Origin: a virus
Strand: one strand, 5' to 3'
Virus record (IMG/VR): IMGVR_UViG_3300045988_069429
Length of the DNA stretch: 55,794 bases
The position numbers and the translations under genes were made by a program. The notes under the pieces are model-generated. The model was given only the letters and a program-made list of their open reading frames with translations. It had not been told where the DNA came from and ran no database searches. Positions 6,421 through 55,794 of the stretch are shown here, piece by piece (position 1 is the first letter of the stretch; each line of letters opens with the position of its first letter).

Positions 6421-6792
6421 TTATTTCTGAATTAAACTTAATTTTGCTCCGACTATTAATCCGTCCTCATTCTTTGCTCTTGTGAGATACGGATATGACA
6501 CATCTCCTGTGTATATTGTCATTTCCTTTTGCTGACCGCCTAAAAATAGGACTTGTGCTGTTGGGAATGGGTTATTTTCATCACTAATCACATTATCAAG
6601 CAACAACGCCTGTTCACCTGTTAGTGGTGGTAATTGAAGCTCTACTTTGTCTTTAATAGCCACGATAGTTCCTACCATTTCGCCGTAGTCATTTCTTCCT
6701 GTGTTCTTAGACCATATTTTATTTCTGCTGTACGCGTAGCCGTTATATGCTACTGGGAATGTCACCCCCTCGATAATTACAGCACTTATCAT
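6421..6792 (-). CDS. Hypothetical tail-module protein
   Basis: ORF with RBS AAAGGGG upstream. Confidence 0.55.
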   Translation of the reverse strand: MISAVIIEGVTFPVAYNGYAYSRNKIWSKNTGRNDYGEMVGTIVAIKDKVELQLPPLTGEQALLLDNVISDENNPFPTAQVLFLGGQQKEMTIYTGDVSYPYLTRAKNEDGLIVGAKLSLIQK

Positions 6793-25278: not shown

Positions 25279-25425
25279 AAATTACCTCCTGTGAAAGATA
25301 ATAGCACTCCGCTTGTGCTTAATCTGTGAATAACAAAACAACAAACAGGCAGTTCACAGGTCTGCTTTTCGGTAGCTAACCTAGTTTGTTGTTAATCTGA
25401 CATATGGACTTGCACCATACCCGCA

Positions 25426-25599: not shown

Positions 25600-25682
25600 C
25601 GCCGATATCGTGAATCGAACACGAACAACATTTCTGTTGGATAGCTTAGCAAGCTACTGGAATACTTTTATCCCATATCGGC
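25600..25682 (-). tRNA. tRNA-Ser(GCU), class II
   Basis: Folded by hand: GCCGATA/TATCGGC acceptor, GGA/TCC D-stem, GTAGC-TTGCTAA-GCTAT anticodon arm, CAACA-GAAA-TGTTG variable arm, TCGTG-TTCGATT-CACGA T-arm. Confidence 0.85.
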
Positions 25683-25686
25683 AAAG

Positions 25687-25776
25687 TGGAGAAGATAGGA
25701 ATTGAACCTACAATGTTTACCGCAAGGGAACAGATTTACAGTCCGCCGCAACACCGCCAATCGTTACCGCTTCCCC
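25687..25776 (-). tRNA. tRNA-Tyr(GUA), class II
   Basis: GGGGAAG/CTTCTCC acceptor, GCGGA-CTGTAAA-TCTGT anticodon arm, GTAGG-TTCAATT-CCTAT T-arm. The variable arm fold is less clean. Confidence 0.7.
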
Positions 25777-26139: not shown

Positions 26140-26211
26140 CTACCCCTGTGGGATTTGAACCCACGATACAGGAATCAAAATCCTGTGCCTTGACCACTTG
26201 GCTAAGGGGCA
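26140..26211 (-). tRNA. tRNA-Gln(UUG)
   Basis: TGCCCCT/AGGGGTA acceptor (U1-A72, G73 as in bacterial tRNA-Gln), CAGGA-TTTTGAT-TCCTG anticodon arm, GTGGG-TTCAAAT-CCCAC T-arm. Confidence 0.9.
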
Positions 26212-28958: not shown

Positions 28959-29186
28959 TTAAAAATATTTTATTTTTTCGTCGTTGGTTGGTACTATCTC
29001 TAAAATGTCGTTTGGCTGGCATCTTAATATAATACATAATGTATTTAAAGTTTTTGTATTAATGTCACTCCTGTTTCTTAGATTCTGCATTGTGCTTTCA
29101 CTTAATATCTTCTCTTTCCTCATTCTGTTAGCGGTGTAGCCACGCTGTGCCAGCTCTTTTAATACATCTATTTTATATGTAATCAT
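28959..29186 (-). CDS. XRE/Cro-type HTH regulator
   Basis: LKELAQRGYTANRMRKEKILSESTMQNLRNRSDINTKTLNTLCIILRCQPNDILE. It is divergent from the plus-strand cassette. Confidence 0.7.
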   Translation of the reverse strand: MITYKIDVLKELAQRGYTANRMRKEKILSESTMQNLRNRSDINTKTLNTLCIILRCQPNDILEIVPTNDEKIKYF

Positions 29187-29767: not shown

Positions 29768-29917
29768 ATGAAAATAGGCGACAAAATTATTTATGGCAAT
29801 GAGATAGAATGCACTTTTAAAAAGTACGAAATAATCAAGAATGGCGAGGTTATAATATACGCCGATTGCAAAGGTGGTGCAATTATAGCACCTTGGGAAA
29901 TGTTTAAAAAAGCATAG
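29768..29917 (+). CDS. Small hypothetical protein (49 aa)
   Basis: RBS AAGGAGG 8 nt upstream. Hand translation: MKIGDKIIYGNEIECTFKKYEIIKNGEVIIYADCKGGAIIAPWEMFKKA. Confidence 0.55.
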   Translation: MKIGDKIIYGNEIECTFKKYEIIKNGEVIIYADCKGGAIIAPWEMFKKA

Positions 29918-30007
29918 CCGAAACGCTCCAGAGTGGAGCGTCAGCCGCGGACCGGTCGCCGTGGCTCTGATGATGGTAGACCGCACAATGAAAGGATGAT
30001 TGATTAT

Positions 30008-31252: not shown

Positions 31253-31311
31253 CTTTTGGGGAGTGTACAGGTTGCGCCCTTTTGGCTTGCTCGATTCCAG
31301 CCGCAAGCATT

Positions 31312-31340
31312 AAGCATATATTTTTATATGCTTTTCTTTG
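31312..31340 (+). terminator. Rho-independent terminator of the plus-strand cassette
   Basis: aagcatata-tttt-tatatgctt followed by ttctttg. Confidence 0.75.
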
Positions 31341-31478
31341 CGTACCTTGAAAAATTAATATAATAATGCTATGCTTATATATAAGGCTTTTAGGTGTACA
31401 AGTGTACCCAATTGGGGCGGCGTGCGTTCTGGAAAATCCGCCAAAACTGGCGACAGCTTCCACAACTTGTAAGGGCAT

Positions 31479-31507
31479 ATTATACCCATTTTATACAACG
31501 CTGTTAA
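31479..31507 (-). promoter_or_regulatory. Promoter TTAACA-17 nt-TATAAT inside the ORF-poor region
   Basis: The reverse complement of 31502-31507 is TTAACA and of 31479-31484 is TATAAT. About 20 nt downstream of the predicted start is the hairpin UCGCCA-GUUU-UGGCGG followed by AUUUU (31431-31453). Confidence 0.45.
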
Positions 31508-31881
31508 AGACGTTTTAAGGCTGTTTTATTTTGTAGGCTTATAAATCTACACCGACACAATAAAACCGCCGCACAGGTCAAATCACAAAGTCACAAAGTC
31601 AAAACAAGCACGAACCGCAACCGGTCAAGTCTATATATAGTGCTTTACCATACTAAAGTTTTTCATCAATTTTTCAGGGCAAATCTGAACAAAATCGGGA
31701 ACAAAAATTGAAATTCTGTGTAACCGATTTTTGGATTTCAAAATTGCATATGACGGGGGTATCAAAATTTTTGCATTATATTTTTGTAGGAAAATTTTTT
31801 CAATTTTTTAAGTAGGATTTGAACGAAATCTGAAACGGATTTTGAAAATTGTCAAAATTAAAATTGCGAATATAAAAAGTT

Positions 31882-31925
31882 AACCCACGGGGGTAAAGAA
31901 AAACTTTACCTATATTCCGTGGGTT
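31882..31925. terminator. Nested bidirectional terminator directly after the cas5-like stop
   Basis: aacccacgg ... ccgtgggtt enclosing ggtaaag-aaaaa-ctttacc. T-runs lie on both sides. Confidence 0.7.
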
Positions 31926-31930
31926 TTAAA

Positions 31931-32629
31931 TTAGTTTATAAAAATAATCGGTTTATCATCATCAAAAAGATTACTAACAACTTCCTGTCCTTTATCCACT
32001 AAGTAACAAGGAACTTTCTGGAATCGTCTAAGACCTTTGATGATTTCATATTTGTTGTTAATTCTATATATAGTTCCTGCGAAATTGCCTTTATTAACAG
32101 GGATATAAGATTGCGTATCTAATGGAGCTGATATAGGCTTGTCAAGCTCATTAAGTTCTACAATATCTACCGCTTCAATCTTACATAAATCACCATATTC
32201 ACCTAATGATGGATATACCGGTGGGTTTAGTAACGCATGGCATATATCATCTATGTCACTATCATCAGCTTTGATGTATATAGTTGTGTATAAATCAACT
32301 AACATCAAATGATATTTAACTGTATTAACCCATCCGGTATGGCTTCCGTCTGTATAATCTGTTATAATATCCCAACGCTTAAGCATTTCATCGCTAACCT
32401 TGTTAAAACGCTTGCCGCCGTGCCATTCTTTCTGTGTTTTAGTGTTGTAAACACCTTTGCCAGTAACAAAATAATCTAATTTATGATACTTTTTCCATTG
32501 ACACATTGAATGAATAAATCCATTAACTGTGCTGAACGGCGGTAAAGGATAGCAATCCGCACCTCTTGGCGCTGATGGATTGTTAAATCTAGCCATTTCT
32601 TGATACATTTTCAACCTAATAACTCTCAT
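31931..32629 (-). CDS. cas5: Cas5-like protein (type I-B Cas5t/Cas5h-like), solitary
   Basis: Start at ATG 32629, 7 nt after GGAGG. MRVIRLKMYQEMARFNNPSAPRGADCYPLPPFSTVNGFIHSMC matches the Cas5 N-terminal signature (xxYPLPPxSTvxGxxhs). Later segments LMLVDLYTTIYIKADD...LLNPPVYPSLGEYGDLCKIEAVDIVEL and GTIYRINNKYE parallel clostridial I-B Cas5 (from memory, no search run). Confidence 0.7.
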   Translation of the reverse strand: MRVIRLKMYQEMARFNNPSAPRGADCYPLPPFSTVNGFIHSMCQWKKYHKLDYFVTGKGVYNTKTQKEWHGGKRFNKVSDEMLKRWDIITDYTDGSHTGWVNTVKYHLMLVDLYTTIYIKADDSDIDDICHALLNPPVYPSLGEYGDLCKIEAVDIVELNELDKPISAPLDTQSYIPVNKGNFAGTIYRINNKYEIIKGLRRFQKVPCYLVDKGQEVVSNLFDDDKPIIFIN

Positions 32630-32639
32630 AACAAAACCT

Positions 32640-32686
32640 CCAAAATAAAATAAGTTGCACCTATACAAAAAATGTATCAATGCAAC
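32640..32686 (-). terminator. Intrinsic terminator or attenuator hairpin immediately upstream of the cas5-like RBS
   Basis: Minus strand: GUUGCAUUGAUACA-UUUUUU-GUAUAGGUGCAAC (12 of 13 positions paired), then UUAUUUUAUUUU, then GGAGG. Confidence 0.6.
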
Positions 32687-32761: not shown

Positions 32762-32911
32762 TTAAGCATTACTGTCAATACAACATTTTTCTGTATAAAT
32801 CAATGCTTTGCTTGCATACTGGCATTGACTAAGCTCATATATCAATAGCTCCTTAGTCATAGTCGGATTAGTCTTTTGAATTATCTTTAACAGCTCATCA
32901 ATACTTATCAT
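32762..32911 (-). CDS. Small hypothetical protein (49 aa)
   Basis: ATGA overlap with the upstream stop. Hand translation: MISIDELLKIIQKTNPTMTKELLIYELSQCQYASKALIYTEKCCIDSNA. Confidence 0.45.
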   Translation of the reverse strand: MISIDELLKIIQKTNPTMTKELLIYELSQCQYASKALIYTEKCCIDSNA

Positions 32912-33228
32912 CCCACTCTCCTAACTGCTCCAAGCACCATATCAACAATGTCAAACACTTCATCTCCGTATGTTGCTACAAAATCACAGAGTACTTCTTC
33001 CTGTTCGATAGGCAAATACACATCATAAGACATACAGATTGCGTGGCACACTTCGTGTATCAGCACTTTGCGTTCCATAAATCCACGCAAGGCGTTTGAC
33101 AGATAAATTGTATGTGTATTTCTATCAGTTACACCTAAGCTGATTGTGCCGTCTGACCGCTTCAATTCACTTGAATTTGAATTTTTATATTGCACTTGCC
33201 ACATTGTGCCATTAATATTAAAAATCAT
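32908..33228 (-). CDS. Small HExxH metallopeptidase-like protein (paralog of 14831-15157)
   Basis: Start at ATG 33228 after AAAGGAG. The HEVCH motif sits in KVLIHEVCHAICMSY. Confidence 0.5.
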   Translation of the reverse strand: MIFNINGTMWQVQYKNSNSSELKRSDGTISLGVTDRNTHTIYLSNALRGFMERKVLIHEVCHAICMSYDVYLPIEQEEVLCDFVATYGDEVFDIVDMVLGAVRRVG

Positions 33229-33287
33229 CTGTATGCTCCTTTCTGAATAAAACAGGCTATGAATATTGCTACTCATAGCCCTTAAAT

Positions 33288-34499: not shown

Positions 34500-35345
34500 T
34501 CAATTATTCTGTTGTAAATATTCAGGTATATCCTTTCTTGGAAGTTGGTGTTTTCCTGTTGTTTTTTTACCGAAAAGGCATTCTTCTACTGTCCACCCGG
34601 CATTATATCTATACCTTAAAGCTTCTCTGCTTATGCCAAGCTCTTTTGACCATTGAGAAAGAGTCTTTTTTACCCCGTTATAAACTATAAAAACAGAAGT
34701 CCTCTTGTTTGACTGTTGCTCGCTCATGGGTATCCAAGTACAATTAGACGGCTCATAATTTCCGTTTACATCTATTCTTTCAAGTGTAAGGTCCTCTGAA
34801 TATCCATTTGCGTATGCCCACTCCCTAAAATTCCAAAAAGTAAGCCATTCATCACACATTTTTATTCCTCTGCCACCATAATCTTTATAATTCGGAGAAT
34901 TAGAATTGTAACATCTTGTTTTTACAGAACTCCACTTTTTATAAAGCTTTCCTGTTGATTCCCCATGACAAGGCCTTACCTTTTTAGCATAATAACTTCT
35001 AAGGCACCCACAAGATGTGCTCGTCCCCCTCTCGAGGTTGTATTGGTAGCAAACAACTTCTTTCCCACAGTCACATTTGCAAAGCCATTGGTTATTGCGG
35101 TTTTTTCTTCCATACTTTTTTATAACAGTTAAATTACCAAACTTTAGACCAGTTAAATCTTTTGCTTTGTGTATGCATCCGCAACTTTTGGTATGTCCAT
35201 TTCTAAGGCTTTTACCATTCACGATTGCATAGTTTCCACAATCGCATCTACACTTCCATAAGTGATACCCTTTTTCGTTTTTTCCTGAATACTCTTCAAC
35301 TATAAGTTTACCAAATCTTTTTCCAATTAAATTTTCAACAGCCAT
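34500..35345 (-). CDS. DNA-binding or homing-endonuclease-like protein with a duplicated Cys motif
   Basis: Two copies of G-(K/L)-(R/K)FG-(K/N)L-x-V...W-(K/L)C-(R/K)CDCG...SCGC. The C-terminal GVKKTLSQWSKELGISREALRYRYNAGWTVEECL is HTH-like. Confidence 0.4.
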   Translation of the reverse strand: MAVENLIGKRFGKLIVEEYSGKNEKGYHLWKCRCDCGNYAIVNGKSLRNGHTKSCGCIHKAKDLTGLKFGNLTVIKKYGRKNRNNQWLCKCDCGKEVVCYQYNLERGTSTSCGCLRSYYAKKVRPCHGESTGKLYKKWSSVKTRCYNSNSPNYKDYGGRGIKMCDEWLTFWNFREWAYANGYSEDLTLERIDVNGNYEPSNCTWIPMSEQQSNKRTSVFIVYNGVKKTLSQWSKELGISREALRYRYNAGWTVEECLFGKKTTGKHQLPRKDIPEYLQQNN

Positions 35346-36376: not shown

Positions 36377-37099
36377 ATGCAAGAAATTTGGAAAGATGTC
36401 CCAAACTTTGAGGGCATTTATCAAGTAAGCAATCTTGGTAATGTAAAATCTTTGTCAAGATGTATCATCCATCGTGGCAATGTTTCCCATATCAAAGAAA
36501 AAATTATGAAACCCTTTATAAACCGTGGTGGATACAAATGTATCAAGTTATCAAAAAATCAAAAGTACTATCCGTTTAAAGTCCATAGGCTTGTAGCTTT
36601 AGCTTTTATCCCCAATCCTAATAATTATGAATGTGTAAACCACAAAGACGAAAATAAACAAAACAACATAGTTTCAAATCTTGAGTGGTGCACCAAAAAG
36701 TATAATAATGAATACGGTTCAAAAGCCTTATGGAAACGAAAAGTTTATAAATACAACCTTAATGGAGTATTTCTTGATTCGTACGAAAGCGTTGTTGAAG
36801 CCTCAAAAGCAAACAAAATACCAGTCAGTTCAATCCGAAGTGCTTGTGATGGTAATAGTATAACAACTCATGGCTTAATATTTGTTTTTGATAAGAATGA
36901 CATTTCAAACAGACTTGAACAGTTAAGGAAATCTAGTCCTATCGGTGTAGCAGTTTACGATTCAAATAAAAAATTAATCGAAAAGTTCGACTGTATTTCC
37001 GATGCATGTTTAAAATACAATGTATCAAAAACATCTATTCATAGGTGTTGTAAGCACCAGTTCAAAAAGTGCAAAGGTTACATTTGGGAATATTGCTAG
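36377..37099 (+). CDS. HNH homing endonuclease (NUMOD4 plus HNH_3, with C-terminal DNA-binding repeats)
   Basis: WKDVPNFEGIYQVSNLGNVKS (NUMOD4), VHRLVALAFIPNPNNYECVNHKDENKQNNIVSNLEW (HNH). It is the only plus-strand gene in a minus-strand block. Confidence 0.8.
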   Translation: MQEIWKDVPNFEGIYQVSNLGNVKSLSRCIIHRGNVSHIKEKIMKPFINRGGYKCIKLSKNQKYYPFKVHRLVALAFIPNPNNYECVNHKDENKQNNIVSNLEWCTKKYNNEYGSKALWKRKVYKYNLNGVFLDSYESVVEASKANKIPVSSIRSACDGNSITTHGLIFVFDKNDISNRLEQLRKSSPIGVAVYDSNKKLIEKFDCISDACLKYNVSKTSIHRCCKHQFKKCKGYIWEYC

Positions 37100-38150: not shown

Positions 38151-39512
38151 CTAAAAATTCTTAAGCTGTATTTCAATATTTCCATTGACAATTACTATCT
38201 TGTCAATTATAGTCTTTAGTATCAAGTTCTTTTGTTTCTTGTCGACCTTATCCCAAATGTCGGCAAGTTTTTTTATGTTCTCATAAACAAATTCCTTTTT
38301 CTGCGTATTGATTGCGTTTTTGCTTTCAGCAGTAATGTTTAATTTCATTTCTTTAATCTGTGCTTCCAGTTCTTTAATCATTTCTAAGACAGTATCGTTT
38401 CCGTCAGCATACAGATTGTATAATCTTTTTAGTTTAATCTGCTCTTTTTCAAGCTGTGATTGCATAATTTCAAGTTTTGTCGCCTTTTCTTTTGGCTTGT
38501 AAGATGATAAATCAAGTGATATTTTAAGGATTTCTTCTTCTACTTGCTTTTCTATCTCGTCCGCCCATTCAAGTGAATTATTACAGCTTGCATTATAATT
38601 GGGCAGATATGAAAGTGATTTATTTCTTGAACAGCAATAAATCTTGTGCTTTTCACTACCCCATTTTTGATAACGCATTTTGCAGCCGCAAATGCCACAA
38701 TAACATAATCCGGTCAGTAAATTAGGTTCGGTTATGCAGTAAGTTTTTGCTGAACACCTTGACTTTCTTAGTTCTAATCCAAGATTAAACCTATCTTTAT
38801 CAAAAACAGGTTCGTGTTTTCCTTGATATATTTTGCCTTTGTAAGGTATCATTCCGATATTTACAACGCCGGTCAAAATGCTTCTAGTAACAAGTTCAGA
38901 CTTAAAGCCACAAATTTCTTTAATTTTCGCATCTGAATAGCCAGATATGAACAATTCAAGACCTTTTCTTGCCTGTTCTGCACGTTCCGGGATAGGTATT
39001 AATATGCCTTGCTCCTTACTGTAGGAATAACAATACGGCAAATTGCCACCACCCATCCAGTAACCCTGCTTAATTCTTTCAAGCATACCGCCACGCATAC
39101 GCAACATCATAGTATTTTTATCAAGCTGCGCAAAAACAGCCATCATCTGTGTGTATGCCTGCTCCATCGGACTGTCATAATTCACACTATCGTGTACACA
39201 TTTAAACACAACATTATATTTTTGAAATACTTTTTCGATAAGATATATTCCATCAATCATATTTCTTGATAATCGGTCAAGTTTAAAGGCTACAACACAG
39301 CCTACTCTCTTACGGCTGCAATCATTTACAAGCCTTTGAAGTTCTGGTCTATCCATATTAGTACCGGTATAACCATCATCAATGTACCAATCCGTTATCA
39401 CAAGCTCATTTTTTCTGCAATAGTTTTCAATATCCCTTTTCTGGCTATCAAGTCCATTGCCCTCAACAGCCTGTTTTTCAGTAGATACTCTCATATAAGC
39501 AACACATTCCAT
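38151..39512 (-). CDS. Large serine recombinase (integrase)
   Basis: Start at ATG 39512 after AGGAGA. VAYMRVSTEKQ carries the catalytic Ser motif, followed by resolvase and recombinase domains, a Cys cluster (CYCGICGCKM...YCCS) and a C-terminal coiled coil. Confidence 0.85.
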   Translation of the reverse strand: MECVAYMRVSTEKQAVEGNGLDSQKRDIENYCRKNELVITDWYIDDGYTGTNMDRPELQRLVNDCSRKRVGCVVAFKLDRLSRNMIDGIYLIEKVFQKYNVVFKCVHDSVNYDSPMEQAYTQMMAVFAQLDKNTMMLRMRGGMLERIKQGYWMGGGNLPYCYSYSKEQGILIPIPERAEQARKGLELFISGYSDAKIKEICGFKSELVTRSILTGVVNIGMIPYKGKIYQGKHEPVFDKDRFNLGLELRKSRCSAKTYCITEPNLLTGLCYCGICGCKMRYQKWGSEKHKIYCCSRNKSLSYLPNYNASCNNSLEWADEIEKQVEEEILKISLDLSSYKPKEKATKLEIMQSQLEKEQIKLKRLYNLYADGNDTVLEMIKELEAQIKEMKLNITAESKNAINTQKKEFVYENIKKLADIWDKVDKKQKNLILKTIIDKIVIVNGNIEIQLKNF

Positions 39513-39543
39513 ATATTTTATCTCCTTATAATATAAATAAATG

Positions 39544-39559
39544 TGCCGCATTTATCACG
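39544..39559. repeat. 16-nt inverted repeat, right copy (5' UTR of the integrase gene)
   Basis: tgccgcatttatcacg. It also forms a local hairpin ataaatg-tgccg-catttat. Confidence 0.85.
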
Positions 39560-55556: not shown

Positions 55557-55745
55557 TTACTTAATCCATTTTTCAACTGGGATTTTTGTTGCTTCTGCAA
55601 TTTTTTGTACTGTGGTTAACGCCGGTAAAGAATTATTATCTTTCCACCTGCCTACAACTCCATTACCAAGACCACATTTTTTTTCAAATGCGTGTATTGA
55701 CAAATTGTTTTCTTCGCAATAAGCGACAACATTTTGATAAAACAT
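55557..55745 (-). CDS. Cro-like XRE HTH protein
   Basis: VVAYCEENNLSIHAFEKKCGLGNGVVGRWKDNNSLPALTTVQKIAEATKI. First gene of the leftward early operon. Confidence 0.75.
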   Translation of the reverse strand: MFYQNVVAYCEENNLSIHAFEKKCGLGNGVVGRWKDNNSLPALTTVQKIAEATKIPVEKWIK

Positions 55746-55794
55746 AGACTTCTCCTTTCTTTATTTAATAAAGATTTAGAGAAAAGCTTGACAA
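55676..55794. repeat. Terminal direct repeat copy 2 (identical to 1-119)
   Basis: Direct comparison of both ends. Confidence 0.95.

Follow-up and report, generated by a model that had tools for sequence, protein, structure and literature searches.

The element described here is a solitary cas5-like gene, together with its 5' leader, in the genome of a gut phage recorded in IMG/VR as IMGVR_UViG_3300045988_069429; the whole 55,794-nt stretch of DNA analysed is referred to as the window. Its closest described counterparts are of three kinds. AcrIB3 from Listeria is a Cas5b homologue that inhibits type I-B CRISPR (short palindromic repeats, clustered and regularly interspaced) systems by entering Cascade, and the same work, which counts 358 orphan viral cas genes, lists IMGVR_UViG_3300007353_000004 and 3300029054_000005 in its Table S3 as orphan viral type I-B cas5 genes (Katz et al., bioRxiv 10.1101/2023.06.24.545427). 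Phage mini-arrays that copy host autoregulatory RNAs resembling CRISPR RNAs (crRNAs) have been predicted for type I-B, the cases being the Clostridium phages c-st and phiSM101 and a Fusobacterium virus, with phage I-B mini-arrays located in anti-CRISPR (acr) loci (Shmakov et al., bioRxiv 10.1101/2023.03.03.530964). RNA anti-CRISPRs (Racrs) include RacrIC1, which is carried with AcrIC5 on one bicistronic RNA (Camara-Wilpert et al., PMC10651486). The two Table S3 members correspond to loci L046 and L071 of our set and encode proteins 95% and 93% identical to the window Cas5-like protein. A lone phage cas5 gene as such is not novel, AcrIB3 having been characterised and the window lineage already catalogued, and the statement in the original prediction that no system of this kind was known does not hold, since phage mini-arrays and Racrs have been described as well. 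The parts are each known and their combination seems not to have been described: in a limited check of the literature, no account was found of a mini-array that forms the leader of a viral cas5 gene and recurs across lineages.

On balance, we consider it probable that the leader RNA and the Cas5-like protein of the window form a single anti-CRISPR transcription unit, in which a guide-RNA mimic is combined with a Cas5 decoy produced by read-through. The unit is composed of the following elements, given in order of transcription (RBS, ribosome-binding site; dG, predicted folding free energy).

32778-32750, minus strand: predicted promoter, with -35 box TTGACA at 32778-32773, a 17-nt spacer and an extended -10 box TGcTATTAT (-10 at 32755-32750)
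32749-32735, minus strand: putative first-repeat remnant, TTAATAG followed by ATGTAAAC
32742-32735, minus strand: 5'-handle-like 8-mer ATGTAAAC at the predicted transcription start, matching the host handle ATGTAAAT at 7 of 8 positions
32734-32711, minus strand: 24-nt spacer-like segment AATAGATAACTATTATATCATTTT (allele A), unique in the window
32710-32689, minus strand: partial second repeat ACCTTAATAGAACCATAGTGGA, corresponding to positions 1-22, the 3'-handle part, of a type I-B repeat
32688-32652 and 32651-32642, minus strand: leader hairpin and U-tract, intrinsic-terminator-like (dG -16.4, z -4.5)
31931-32629, minus strand: cas5-like gene, 232 aa, with RBS GGAGG at 32641-32637 and its ATG seven bases past GGAGG
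31925-31883, minus strand: nested terminator after the stop codon (dG -21.7 on the minus strand, -23.4 on the plus strand)

The product of 31931-32629 is identified, by profile and modelled-fold comparison, as a full-length and strongly diverged homologue of type I-B Cas5, in keeping with the original assignment of this GGAGG-preceded open reading frame (ORF). The NCBIfam profile TIGR01895 matched residues 1-218 over model positions 1-204 of 217 (E=1.1e-22), and the PADLOC Cas5b profile matched at 2.8e-23. The TIGR01895 score of 80.8 bits lies below the curated cutoff of 96.7, so that the protein is a homologue and not an equivalog by the NCBI cutoff, and Pfam PF09704 matched the N-terminal 40 residues only (E=0.03; 14.7 bits against a cutoff of 23); of the profile searches that had been proposed as a check, the first family gave a full-length match and the second an N-terminal one. 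A model was built with AlphaFold on nine family members (predicted local distance difference test score, pLDDT, 73; predicted template modelling score, pTM, 0.70). Foldseek returned Cas5 chains of I-E, I-B, I-A and I-C Cascades as its first 30 or more PDB matches (E down to 3e-7, probability 1.00, template modelling score 0.45-0.58), the structural likeness to Cas5 that had been anticipated. A PDB sequence search with the family profile gave only a weak N-terminal match to 8fcj_A (E=0.042). The ORF is intact in 80 of 80 IMG/VR relatives, with a median ratio of nonsynonymous to synonymous substitution rates (dN/dS) of 0.09 against the window, a value that indicates strong purifying selection.

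With cellular Cas5b (TIGR01895) the protein shares homology over its full length, the Cas5 fold and the motif YPLPPFSTV.G..H, which is kept throughout the phage family; it differs in scoring below the curated cutoff, in being encoded outside a cas operon and in lacking, like the rest of its family, loop segments of the C-terminal half. Five residues are invariant in the phage family and absent from cellular Cas5b and AcrIB3 (W69, G71, G72, R85 and G99). In a simple neighbour-joining tree without support values, the phage proteins form a clade of their own, 32% identical to the Cas5b of the host. The likeness to AcrIB3 consists in a full-length Cas5b homologue being carried by a phage, outside any cas operon and in a clade apart from cellular Cas5. 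The two proteins are 28% identical (AcrIB3 sequence from Katz et al., Table S2), however, and AcrIB3 groups with cellular Listeria and Clostridia Cas5b (42-45% identity), whereas the window family lies outside all cellular Cas5b sampled (24-34%). Since AcrIB3 falls within the cellular branch and the window family outside it, the latter is, as judged from the proteins sampled, a co-option separate from and older, or deeper, than that of AcrIB3.

As had been claimed, the cas5-like gene is the sole cas gene of the phage: PADLOC and Pfam searches of all 91 window ORFs found no other, tblastn of eight Lachnospira eligens Cas proteins against the window gave a match for Cas5 only, and neither further cas genes nor a regular CRISPR array were found in the window or in 89 related phage loci. 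In cellular operons such as those of L241 or L120, cas5 has cas7, cas8b and cas3 as neighbours, which the window gene lacks. Orthologues, which it had been proposed to look for, were found in other phages, and five phage lineages have the gene in solitary form, among them unrelated siphoviruses, P22-like phages and myoviruses. A chimeric contig, which had been named as a possible artefact, was ruled out, as the same arrangement is common to at least 80 independent IMG/VR contigs and a prophage.

The gene had been described as insulated by terminators on both sides, with no room for a promoter between the upstream hairpin and the RBS. The latter point is correct and both hairpins are supported by folding, but a conserved, near-consensus predicted promoter stands in front of the upstream hairpin. 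It matches the consensus at 11 of 12 positions and has the TG of an extended -10 box, with a predicted start at ~32743; the arrangement TTGACA-17-TATTAT also occurs in phage loci L104 and L108 (Cas5-like proteins 53% and 63% identical) and is nearly invariant in 84 relatives. In both of these loci the leader contains a hairpin of like shape and different sequence, followed by a U-tract and GGAGG, and strong hairpins also follow the stop codon. The downstream hairpin of the window has a UUUUU tail on the minus strand and a weaker tail on the plus strand. Because the conserved promoter precedes it, the upstream hairpin lies in the 5' leader, and the cas5-like gene would be reached by read-through, in agreement with the earlier view that expression must pass a terminator-like hairpin. 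From this layout we infer that a leader RNA of ~100 nt ends at the hairpin and U-tract and that cas5-like mRNA arises only by read-through. A longer fold of the leader pairs the repeat region with the RBS region. A 12-nt perfect complement was also noted on the minus strand between the 5' arm of the hairpin (32680-32669, UUGAUACAUUUU) and codons 7-10 (32611-32600, AAAAUGUAUCAA), which could be an alternative pairing formed after read-through, or chance.

Between promoter and hairpin, the leader is best described, from its sequence, as a degenerate mini-array made up of a handle, a 24-nt spacer, a partial repeat and a terminator. A repeat profile was built from only six cellular I-B repeats located beside the closest cellular Cas5b genes (for example GTTTTAATAGAGCCATACTGGA followed by the handle ATGTAAAT), and, over both strands of the window, it matched best at 32707-32686 (14.3 bits, E=0.0035, against 0.14 for the runner-up), a position that lies within the leader and adjoins the hairpin on its 5' side. 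When compared with positions 4-22 of the repeat from phage-targeting arrays (for example GATTTAATAGAAACATAGTGGA followed by ATGTAAAT), the partial repeat is identical at 18 of 19 positions. The 8 nt past ACCTTAATAGAACCATAGTGGA are not handle-like, and terminal repeats of genuine arrays decay alike, to ...GGAAAG. The first-repeat remnant is equal to the host repeat (TTAATA-GAT-ACATAGTGG-GAT-GTAAAT) after removal of 12 internal nucleotides between the two GAT triplets. The expected Cas6 cut (GGA/AAG) falls at the first base of the terminator stem. The absence of a CRISPR array, as originally stated, thus holds for regular arrays and not for degenerate handle-spacer-repeat units, and a candidate for the repeat-like RNA that had been imagined next door exists, though within the gene's own leader, where only a terminator had been noted. 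Rfam CRISPR-DR families gave no match in the leader; a match to DR22 in the downstream non-coding stretch (31512-31547, E=0.59) is probably noise. A 6-nt periodicity of spacer shortening was considered and rejected as inconsistent between lineages (24, 20, 18 and 28 nt).

Metagenome contigs were scanned with the repeat core, yielding 66 genuine arrays with 1721 spacers. Matches to the window at 29-35 of 34-37 nt were found for 25 of these spacers, which come from eight gut type I-B arrays, and all 25 protospacers are flanked by the protospacer-adjacent motif (PAM) 5'-CCN (CCA 15, CCT 7, CCG 3), which is the usual type I-B PAM. The minus (coding) strand holds 22 of the 25, and none lies in the cas5-like gene. 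Examples are as follows.

37534-37500, 19451-19416, 14136-14102, 14112-14077, 10583-10548, 34083-34048 and 31429-31394: protospacers matched by host spacers

The Cas5b encoded beside the phage-targeting array L180 is 100% identical to Lachnospira eligens Cas5 at NCBI, in agreement with the host genus Lachnospira predicted in IMG/VR for two members of the window phage lineage (Katz et al., Table S3, bioRxiv 10.1101/2023.06.24.545427). The L. eligens locus L241 has the gene order cas6-cas8b-cas7-cas5-cas3-cas4-cas1-cas2, followed by 47 repeats, and its cas5 adjoins neither the array nor a mini-array. Upstream of cas6, gut type I-B loci have a small mini-array on the opposite strand. It is built like the phage leader, with a promoter, a partial repeat that includes the handle, a short spacer and another partial repeat, and a terminator stands behind it in some loci (for example L200). 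For each host mini-array spacer there is a partial target with a flanking CCA, located 55-110 bp away on the -35 box of the cas6 promoter, where 11-18 seed positions match, compared with at most 5 elsewhere in the same locus; it is this autoregulatory layout that Shmakov et al. describe for type I-B. The L. eligens elements are given below.

L241 6486-6422, minus strand: L. eligens mini-array with spacer AATTGATAATTAATATAATCAACT
L241 6544-6567: target of this mini-array, CCA followed by AATTGATAATTTATATTGACA, 65 nt before the cas6 ATG

The host spacer AATTGATAATTAATATAATCAACT pairs with its target at 15 of the first 16 positions, the exception being position 12; in type I effectors every sixth position is unpaired, and position 12 is one of these. 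The target is common to four L. eligens loci, related hosts have variants of it, and in L248 (~1390-1520) mini-array spacer and cas6-promoter target have changed together. Across Lachnospira-type I-B loci (L241 6422-6567, L244 ~1440-1580, L248 and L249-L252) spacer and target co-vary and some loci are without the mini-array, a pattern that would fit an arms race with phage copies of it. By this comparison the phage leader is a homologue of the autoregulatory mini-array found upstream of cas6 in L. eligens type I-B loci.

The leader spacer exists in two main alleles, with 43 A-type (including the window) and 38 B-type sequences among 83 relatives. Allele B (AATTGATAATTAATATATCATTTT) shares 17 nt of identity with the spacer of the L. 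eligens mini-array and pairs with the CCA-flanked cas6-promoter target at 15 of 16 positions, in the pattern of the host spacer. A PAM-plus-seed search with all phage leader spacers against an initial set of host loci gave nothing above shuffled sequences, because those loci lacked the true host promoter; the target surfaced with the L. eligens locus. Repression of the cas6 promoter is supported, by sequence matching, for the phage lineage and not for the window genome itself, which carries allele A. In the window genome, the RNA may be a decoy that works independently of its spacer, may fit a host variant outside the sample, or may serve mainly to regulate the downstream gene. The predicted target that allele A would fit is as follows.

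Upstream of cas6, predicted: CCN followed by AATAGATAACT

Compared with the mini-arrays of Shmakov et al., the window leader likewise has two repeat-like units around a short spacer and a host counterpart that lies upstream of cas6 and targets the cas6 promoter region beside a type I-B PAM, and, in allele B only, the phage spacer shares the seed of the host spacer. It differs in forming the 5' leader of a viral cas5, a gene not mentioned by Shmakov et al., in having its first repeat reduced to a handle at the transcription start and, for allele A, in being off the known target. A further difference from AcrIB3 is the repeat-like leader in front of the gene; Katz et al. make no mention of repeats or mini-arrays in the vicinity of viral cas genes. 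Racrs resemble it as phage repeat mimics located directly downstream of a promoter (here the predicted order is promoter, mimic, terminator), and RacrIC1-AcrIC5 does so in that one transcript carries both an RNA and a protein inhibitor. Racrs are, in contrast, solitary repeats, typically without cas association, and RacrIF1 has no 5' handle (PMC10651486), whereas in the window RNA a handle is present, the spacer is homologous to a regulatory spacer of the host, and a cas homologue follows downstream. At this locus two halves that are each known, a Cas-homologue inhibitor and a guide mimic, would be joined between one promoter and one terminator, and the same pairing is seen in several phage lineages of Lachnospiraceae that are abundant in the human gut.

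Repeat-like units accompany the cas5-like gene in other lineages in several arrangements. The leaders of L104 and L115-L119 contain a nearly full first repeat (E 7e-4 to ~9e-5) and a partial second one, and the L108 lineage keeps a related spacer (AATTGATGATTGTATATT) with a wholly different hairpin sequence. In L111 and L114, unrelated phages that have a P22-type portal or a myovirus baseplate, the gene is followed directly, on its downstream side, by two full repeat-like units spaced 59 nt apart. Scans of IMG/VR with P0022 and P0014 gave no matches. As separate observations, L141 (~6480-6700, minus strand) and L171 (3310-3520) carry a promoter, a full repeat, a short spacer, a partial repeat with GGAAAG at its end and a terminator with no cas5 nearby, and L139 contains three repeat-like units with spacers of 24-26 nt.

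Under the reading we prefer, that of one anti-CRISPR unit, a strong promoter would drive a ~100-nt leader RNA that is a crRNA-like mini-array (5' handle at the transcript start, 24-nt spacer, partial repeat) copied from the mini-array upstream of host cas6. In the host, the mini-array RNA would guide Cascade to the PAM-flanked, partly complementary site at the cas6 -35 box and so turn the cas operon down; the phage RNA, loaded into host Cascade, would be sent to the same promoter in excess and would also compete with real crRNAs for Cas proteins. Most transcripts would stop at the leader terminator, and read-through would yield the diverged Cas5b homologue, which would act as a faulty Cascade subunit in the manner of AcrIB3. 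For the protein, the role of Cas-derived anti-CRISPR decoy that was suggested at the outset is rated the most plausible function, with AcrIB3 as precedent.

Several observations weigh against this reading. In allele A (AATAGATAACTATTATATCATTTT), positions 4, 10 and 13 are different and only 12 of 16 positions pair; the differences at 4 and 10 are seed mismatches to every cas6 promoter sampled, and no better target for it was found among the host loci sampled or in the window. The most distant lineage, L004 (P0014 lineage), is without a repeat-like unit. The window neighbours of the cas5-like gene are not recognisable acr or anti-CRISPR-associated (aca) genes, and no match to a known AcrIB was found. 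Finally, a viral Cas5 that blocks DNA binding by Cascade, as AcrIB3 does, would undercut a guide whose action depends on DNA binding.

The alternative that withstands the evidence best, though we hold it to be doubtful, is that the RNA is purely a Racr-like decoy, titrating Cas6, Cas7 and Cas5 into short useless complexes irrespective of its spacer, the promoter match of allele B being merely inherited from the copied host mini-array. It would account for the mismatched allele A being as common as B (43 against 38) under the same conserved promoter and terminator and for the short spacers (18-24 nt) of several lineages, and RacrIF1 is a precedent for the mechanism (Camara-Wilpert et al., PMC10651486). 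On the other side, the first 17 nt of allele B are those of the host spacer despite Cas5 proteins that are only ~32% identical, which argues for selection on the spacer, and L108 has retained its related spacer although the hairpin sequence is completely different.

In an alternative that we think unlikely, the two parts would cooperate instead: the viral Cas5 would cap the phage RNA, the 5' handle of which would arise through transcription initiation and has C, not U, as its last base, and with host Cas7, Cas8b and Cas6 it would build a Cascade that only represses, silencing the cas operon of the host or other targets. RNA and cas5-like gene are linked in at least three deep lineages, with the RNA upstream or downstream of the gene; the first repeat of the window lineage is without the part recognised by Cas6 and has its handle at the predicted start; W69, G71-G72, R85 and G99 are motifs of the family's own; and the conflict between a guide that needs DNA binding and a decoy that blocks it disappears. 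Host Cas5, however, should already bind a near-identical handle, and neither part strictly needs the other, since L141 and L171 have the RNA without cas5 and L004 has cas5 without the RNA. As a speculative extension of equally low probability, the phage would carry a two-part kit, an initiation-made guide that needs no Cas6 at its 5' end and a private Cas5, by which host Cascade is reprogrammed onto the cas6 promoter. Spacer alleles A and B would then track host promoter variants in an arms race at a single promoter site, and were the parts to cooperate, this would be the first phage to bring both a guide and a matching Cas subunit against the host effector's own promoter.

It is improbable, and clearly more so, that the leader is mainly a cis-regulatory sensor, in which host Cas6 or Cascade, by binding or cleaving the partial repeat, would alter termination, the stability of the mRNA or access to the RBS, so that the decoy is made only in hosts with an active type I-B system. 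The position of the expected Cas6 cut at the first base of the terminator stem, the longer fold that pairs repeat and RBS regions and the 12-nt complement between the hairpin 5' arm and codons 7-10 would all suit such a device, but the RBS pairings differ in L104 and L108, the complement could be chance, and the repeat units of L111 and L114, being downstream of the gene, are unable to control it in this way. Weakest, and very improbable, are a mini-array for inter-phage conflict, guiding host Cascade at competitors, and a functionless relic of a captured CRISPR locus: the repeats are degenerate and viral mini-arrays against related viruses are known, yet the spacer is 24 nt long, AT-rich and near-fixed as two alleles, with no self-targeting of the window and no other match there or in the loci sampled, a relic is excluded by the dN/dS of 0.09 and by the repeat part, in which 18/19 positions are those of present-day host repeats against a protein that has diverged to ~30%, and joint capture is unlikely because host cas5 adjoins neither array nor mini-array.

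Even in its plainest form, the preferred anti-CRISPR unit gives a testable system, with a named host species, a complete I-B locus including the autoregulatory RNA and its promoter target, 25 protospacers of natural origin and their PAM, and one promoter-matching and one non-matching natural allele. For annotation, the lesson is that degenerate repeat units in the leaders of 'orphan' viral cas genes are missed by searches for these genes.

The genes surrounding the unit were also compared between lineages. Upstream of the cas5-like gene in the window is a conserved pair.

32762-33276, minus strand: upstream gene pair, consisting of a 122-aa HExxH (M78/SprT-like) protein at 32908-33276 and a 49-aa protein at 32762-32911

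The matches for the pair were a weak one to PF06114 and one to phrog_1233, the 3' end of the 49-aa gene overlaps the cas5-like promoter, and in L104 and L108, too, homologues of the pair immediately precede the cas5-like gene. That gene follows the conserved pair in the window lineage and borders a variable region; in L104 (the 53% lineage) the variable region encodes ArdA and an acidic 86-aa protein, homologues of which adjoin the cas5-like gene in two further lineages. L004 has a helix-turn-helix (HTH) gene overlapping the cas5-like start. Members of the acidic family, which are 33-37% identical to each other, are as follows.

L004 1037-1309: very acidic protein of the 86-90-aa family
L111 9729-10001: very acidic protein of the 86-90-aa family
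L114 699-971: very acidic protein of the 86-90-aa family
L104 9582-9842, minus strand: very acidic protein of the 86-90-aa family, next to ArdA

The acidic protein, a candidate for anti-defence, resembles neither AcrIB4-9 nor Cas8b and is absent from the window, and the idea of a 90-aa partner protein homologous to AcrIB4 or the Cas8b C-terminus was rejected on these grounds. A tblastn match in 'Listeria phages' was first taken as AcrIB3 and proved to be a true Cas5b from a record with a complete type I-B operon and array. The records concerned, L120 (OR846720.1 34974-43600) and OR848150.1, are named 'Listeria phage LM 4-11-1 / 4-14-1' (INPHARED, UNVERIFIED_ORG); they have an entire type I-B cas operon together with an array of at least 13 repeats and are probably host DNA and not phage.

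IMGVR_UViG_3300045988_069429 is a 55.8-kb temperate siphovirus of 36% GC. An identical 119-bp overlap at the window ends (1-119 and 55676-55794) indicates a circular assembly and a genome of ~55,675 bp, which encodes an SPP1-type portal, a capsid protein, RecT, two single-stranded DNA-binding proteins, a large serine recombinase, a GH25 lysin and tRNAs. No close phage relatives were found by DNA search of INPHARED. A prophage 99% identical to the window was found in a 407-kb bacterial contig, L001 (4306-5432 and onward), where it starts directly after spoIIAA, spoIIAB and an 85-aa Sigma70_r2 fragment; the phage, which has a large serine recombinase (window 38151-39551, minus strand), probably interrupts sigF in the manner of sporulation-gene intervening elements. 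Further features of the window are listed here.

25324-25391, minus strand: int-alpA RNA (44.6 bits)
25600-25682, minus strand: tRNA-Ser
25687-25776, minus strand: possible third tRNA (30.3 bits, barely over threshold)
26140-26211, minus strand: tRNA-Gln
28959-29186, minus strand: small Cro/C1-type HTH protein in the variable region (PF13443, E=9e-12)
29916-29985, plus strand: type II hammerhead ribozyme (Rfam RF02276, 49.1 bits, gathering score 37)
34500-35345, minus strand: HNH endonuclease gene, missing from essentially all 83 relatives
36377-37099, plus strand: second HNH gene (NUMOD4/HNH)

The HNH gene at 34500-35345 is probably a homing-endonuclease insertion specific to the window genome. 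The small HTH protein is a possible regulator of the accessory region, and HTH_26 genes also occur near the cas5-like gene in L104 and L111-L113. The hammerhead ribozyme lies between two small plus-strand ORFs in the variable region downstream of the cas5-like gene. Also downstream of that gene, ~600 bp without convincing ORFs (31300-31900) are kept in 53-79 of 83 relatives and contain the protospacer of one host spacer (31429-31394), two promoter-like sites matching at 11 of 12 positions on the minus strand (31803-31775 and 31507-31479), a 19-bp inverted repeat (31519-31537 and 31552-31570) and short tandem repeats, and a sequence like a tRNA 3' end is found near 31290-31320 on the plus strand.

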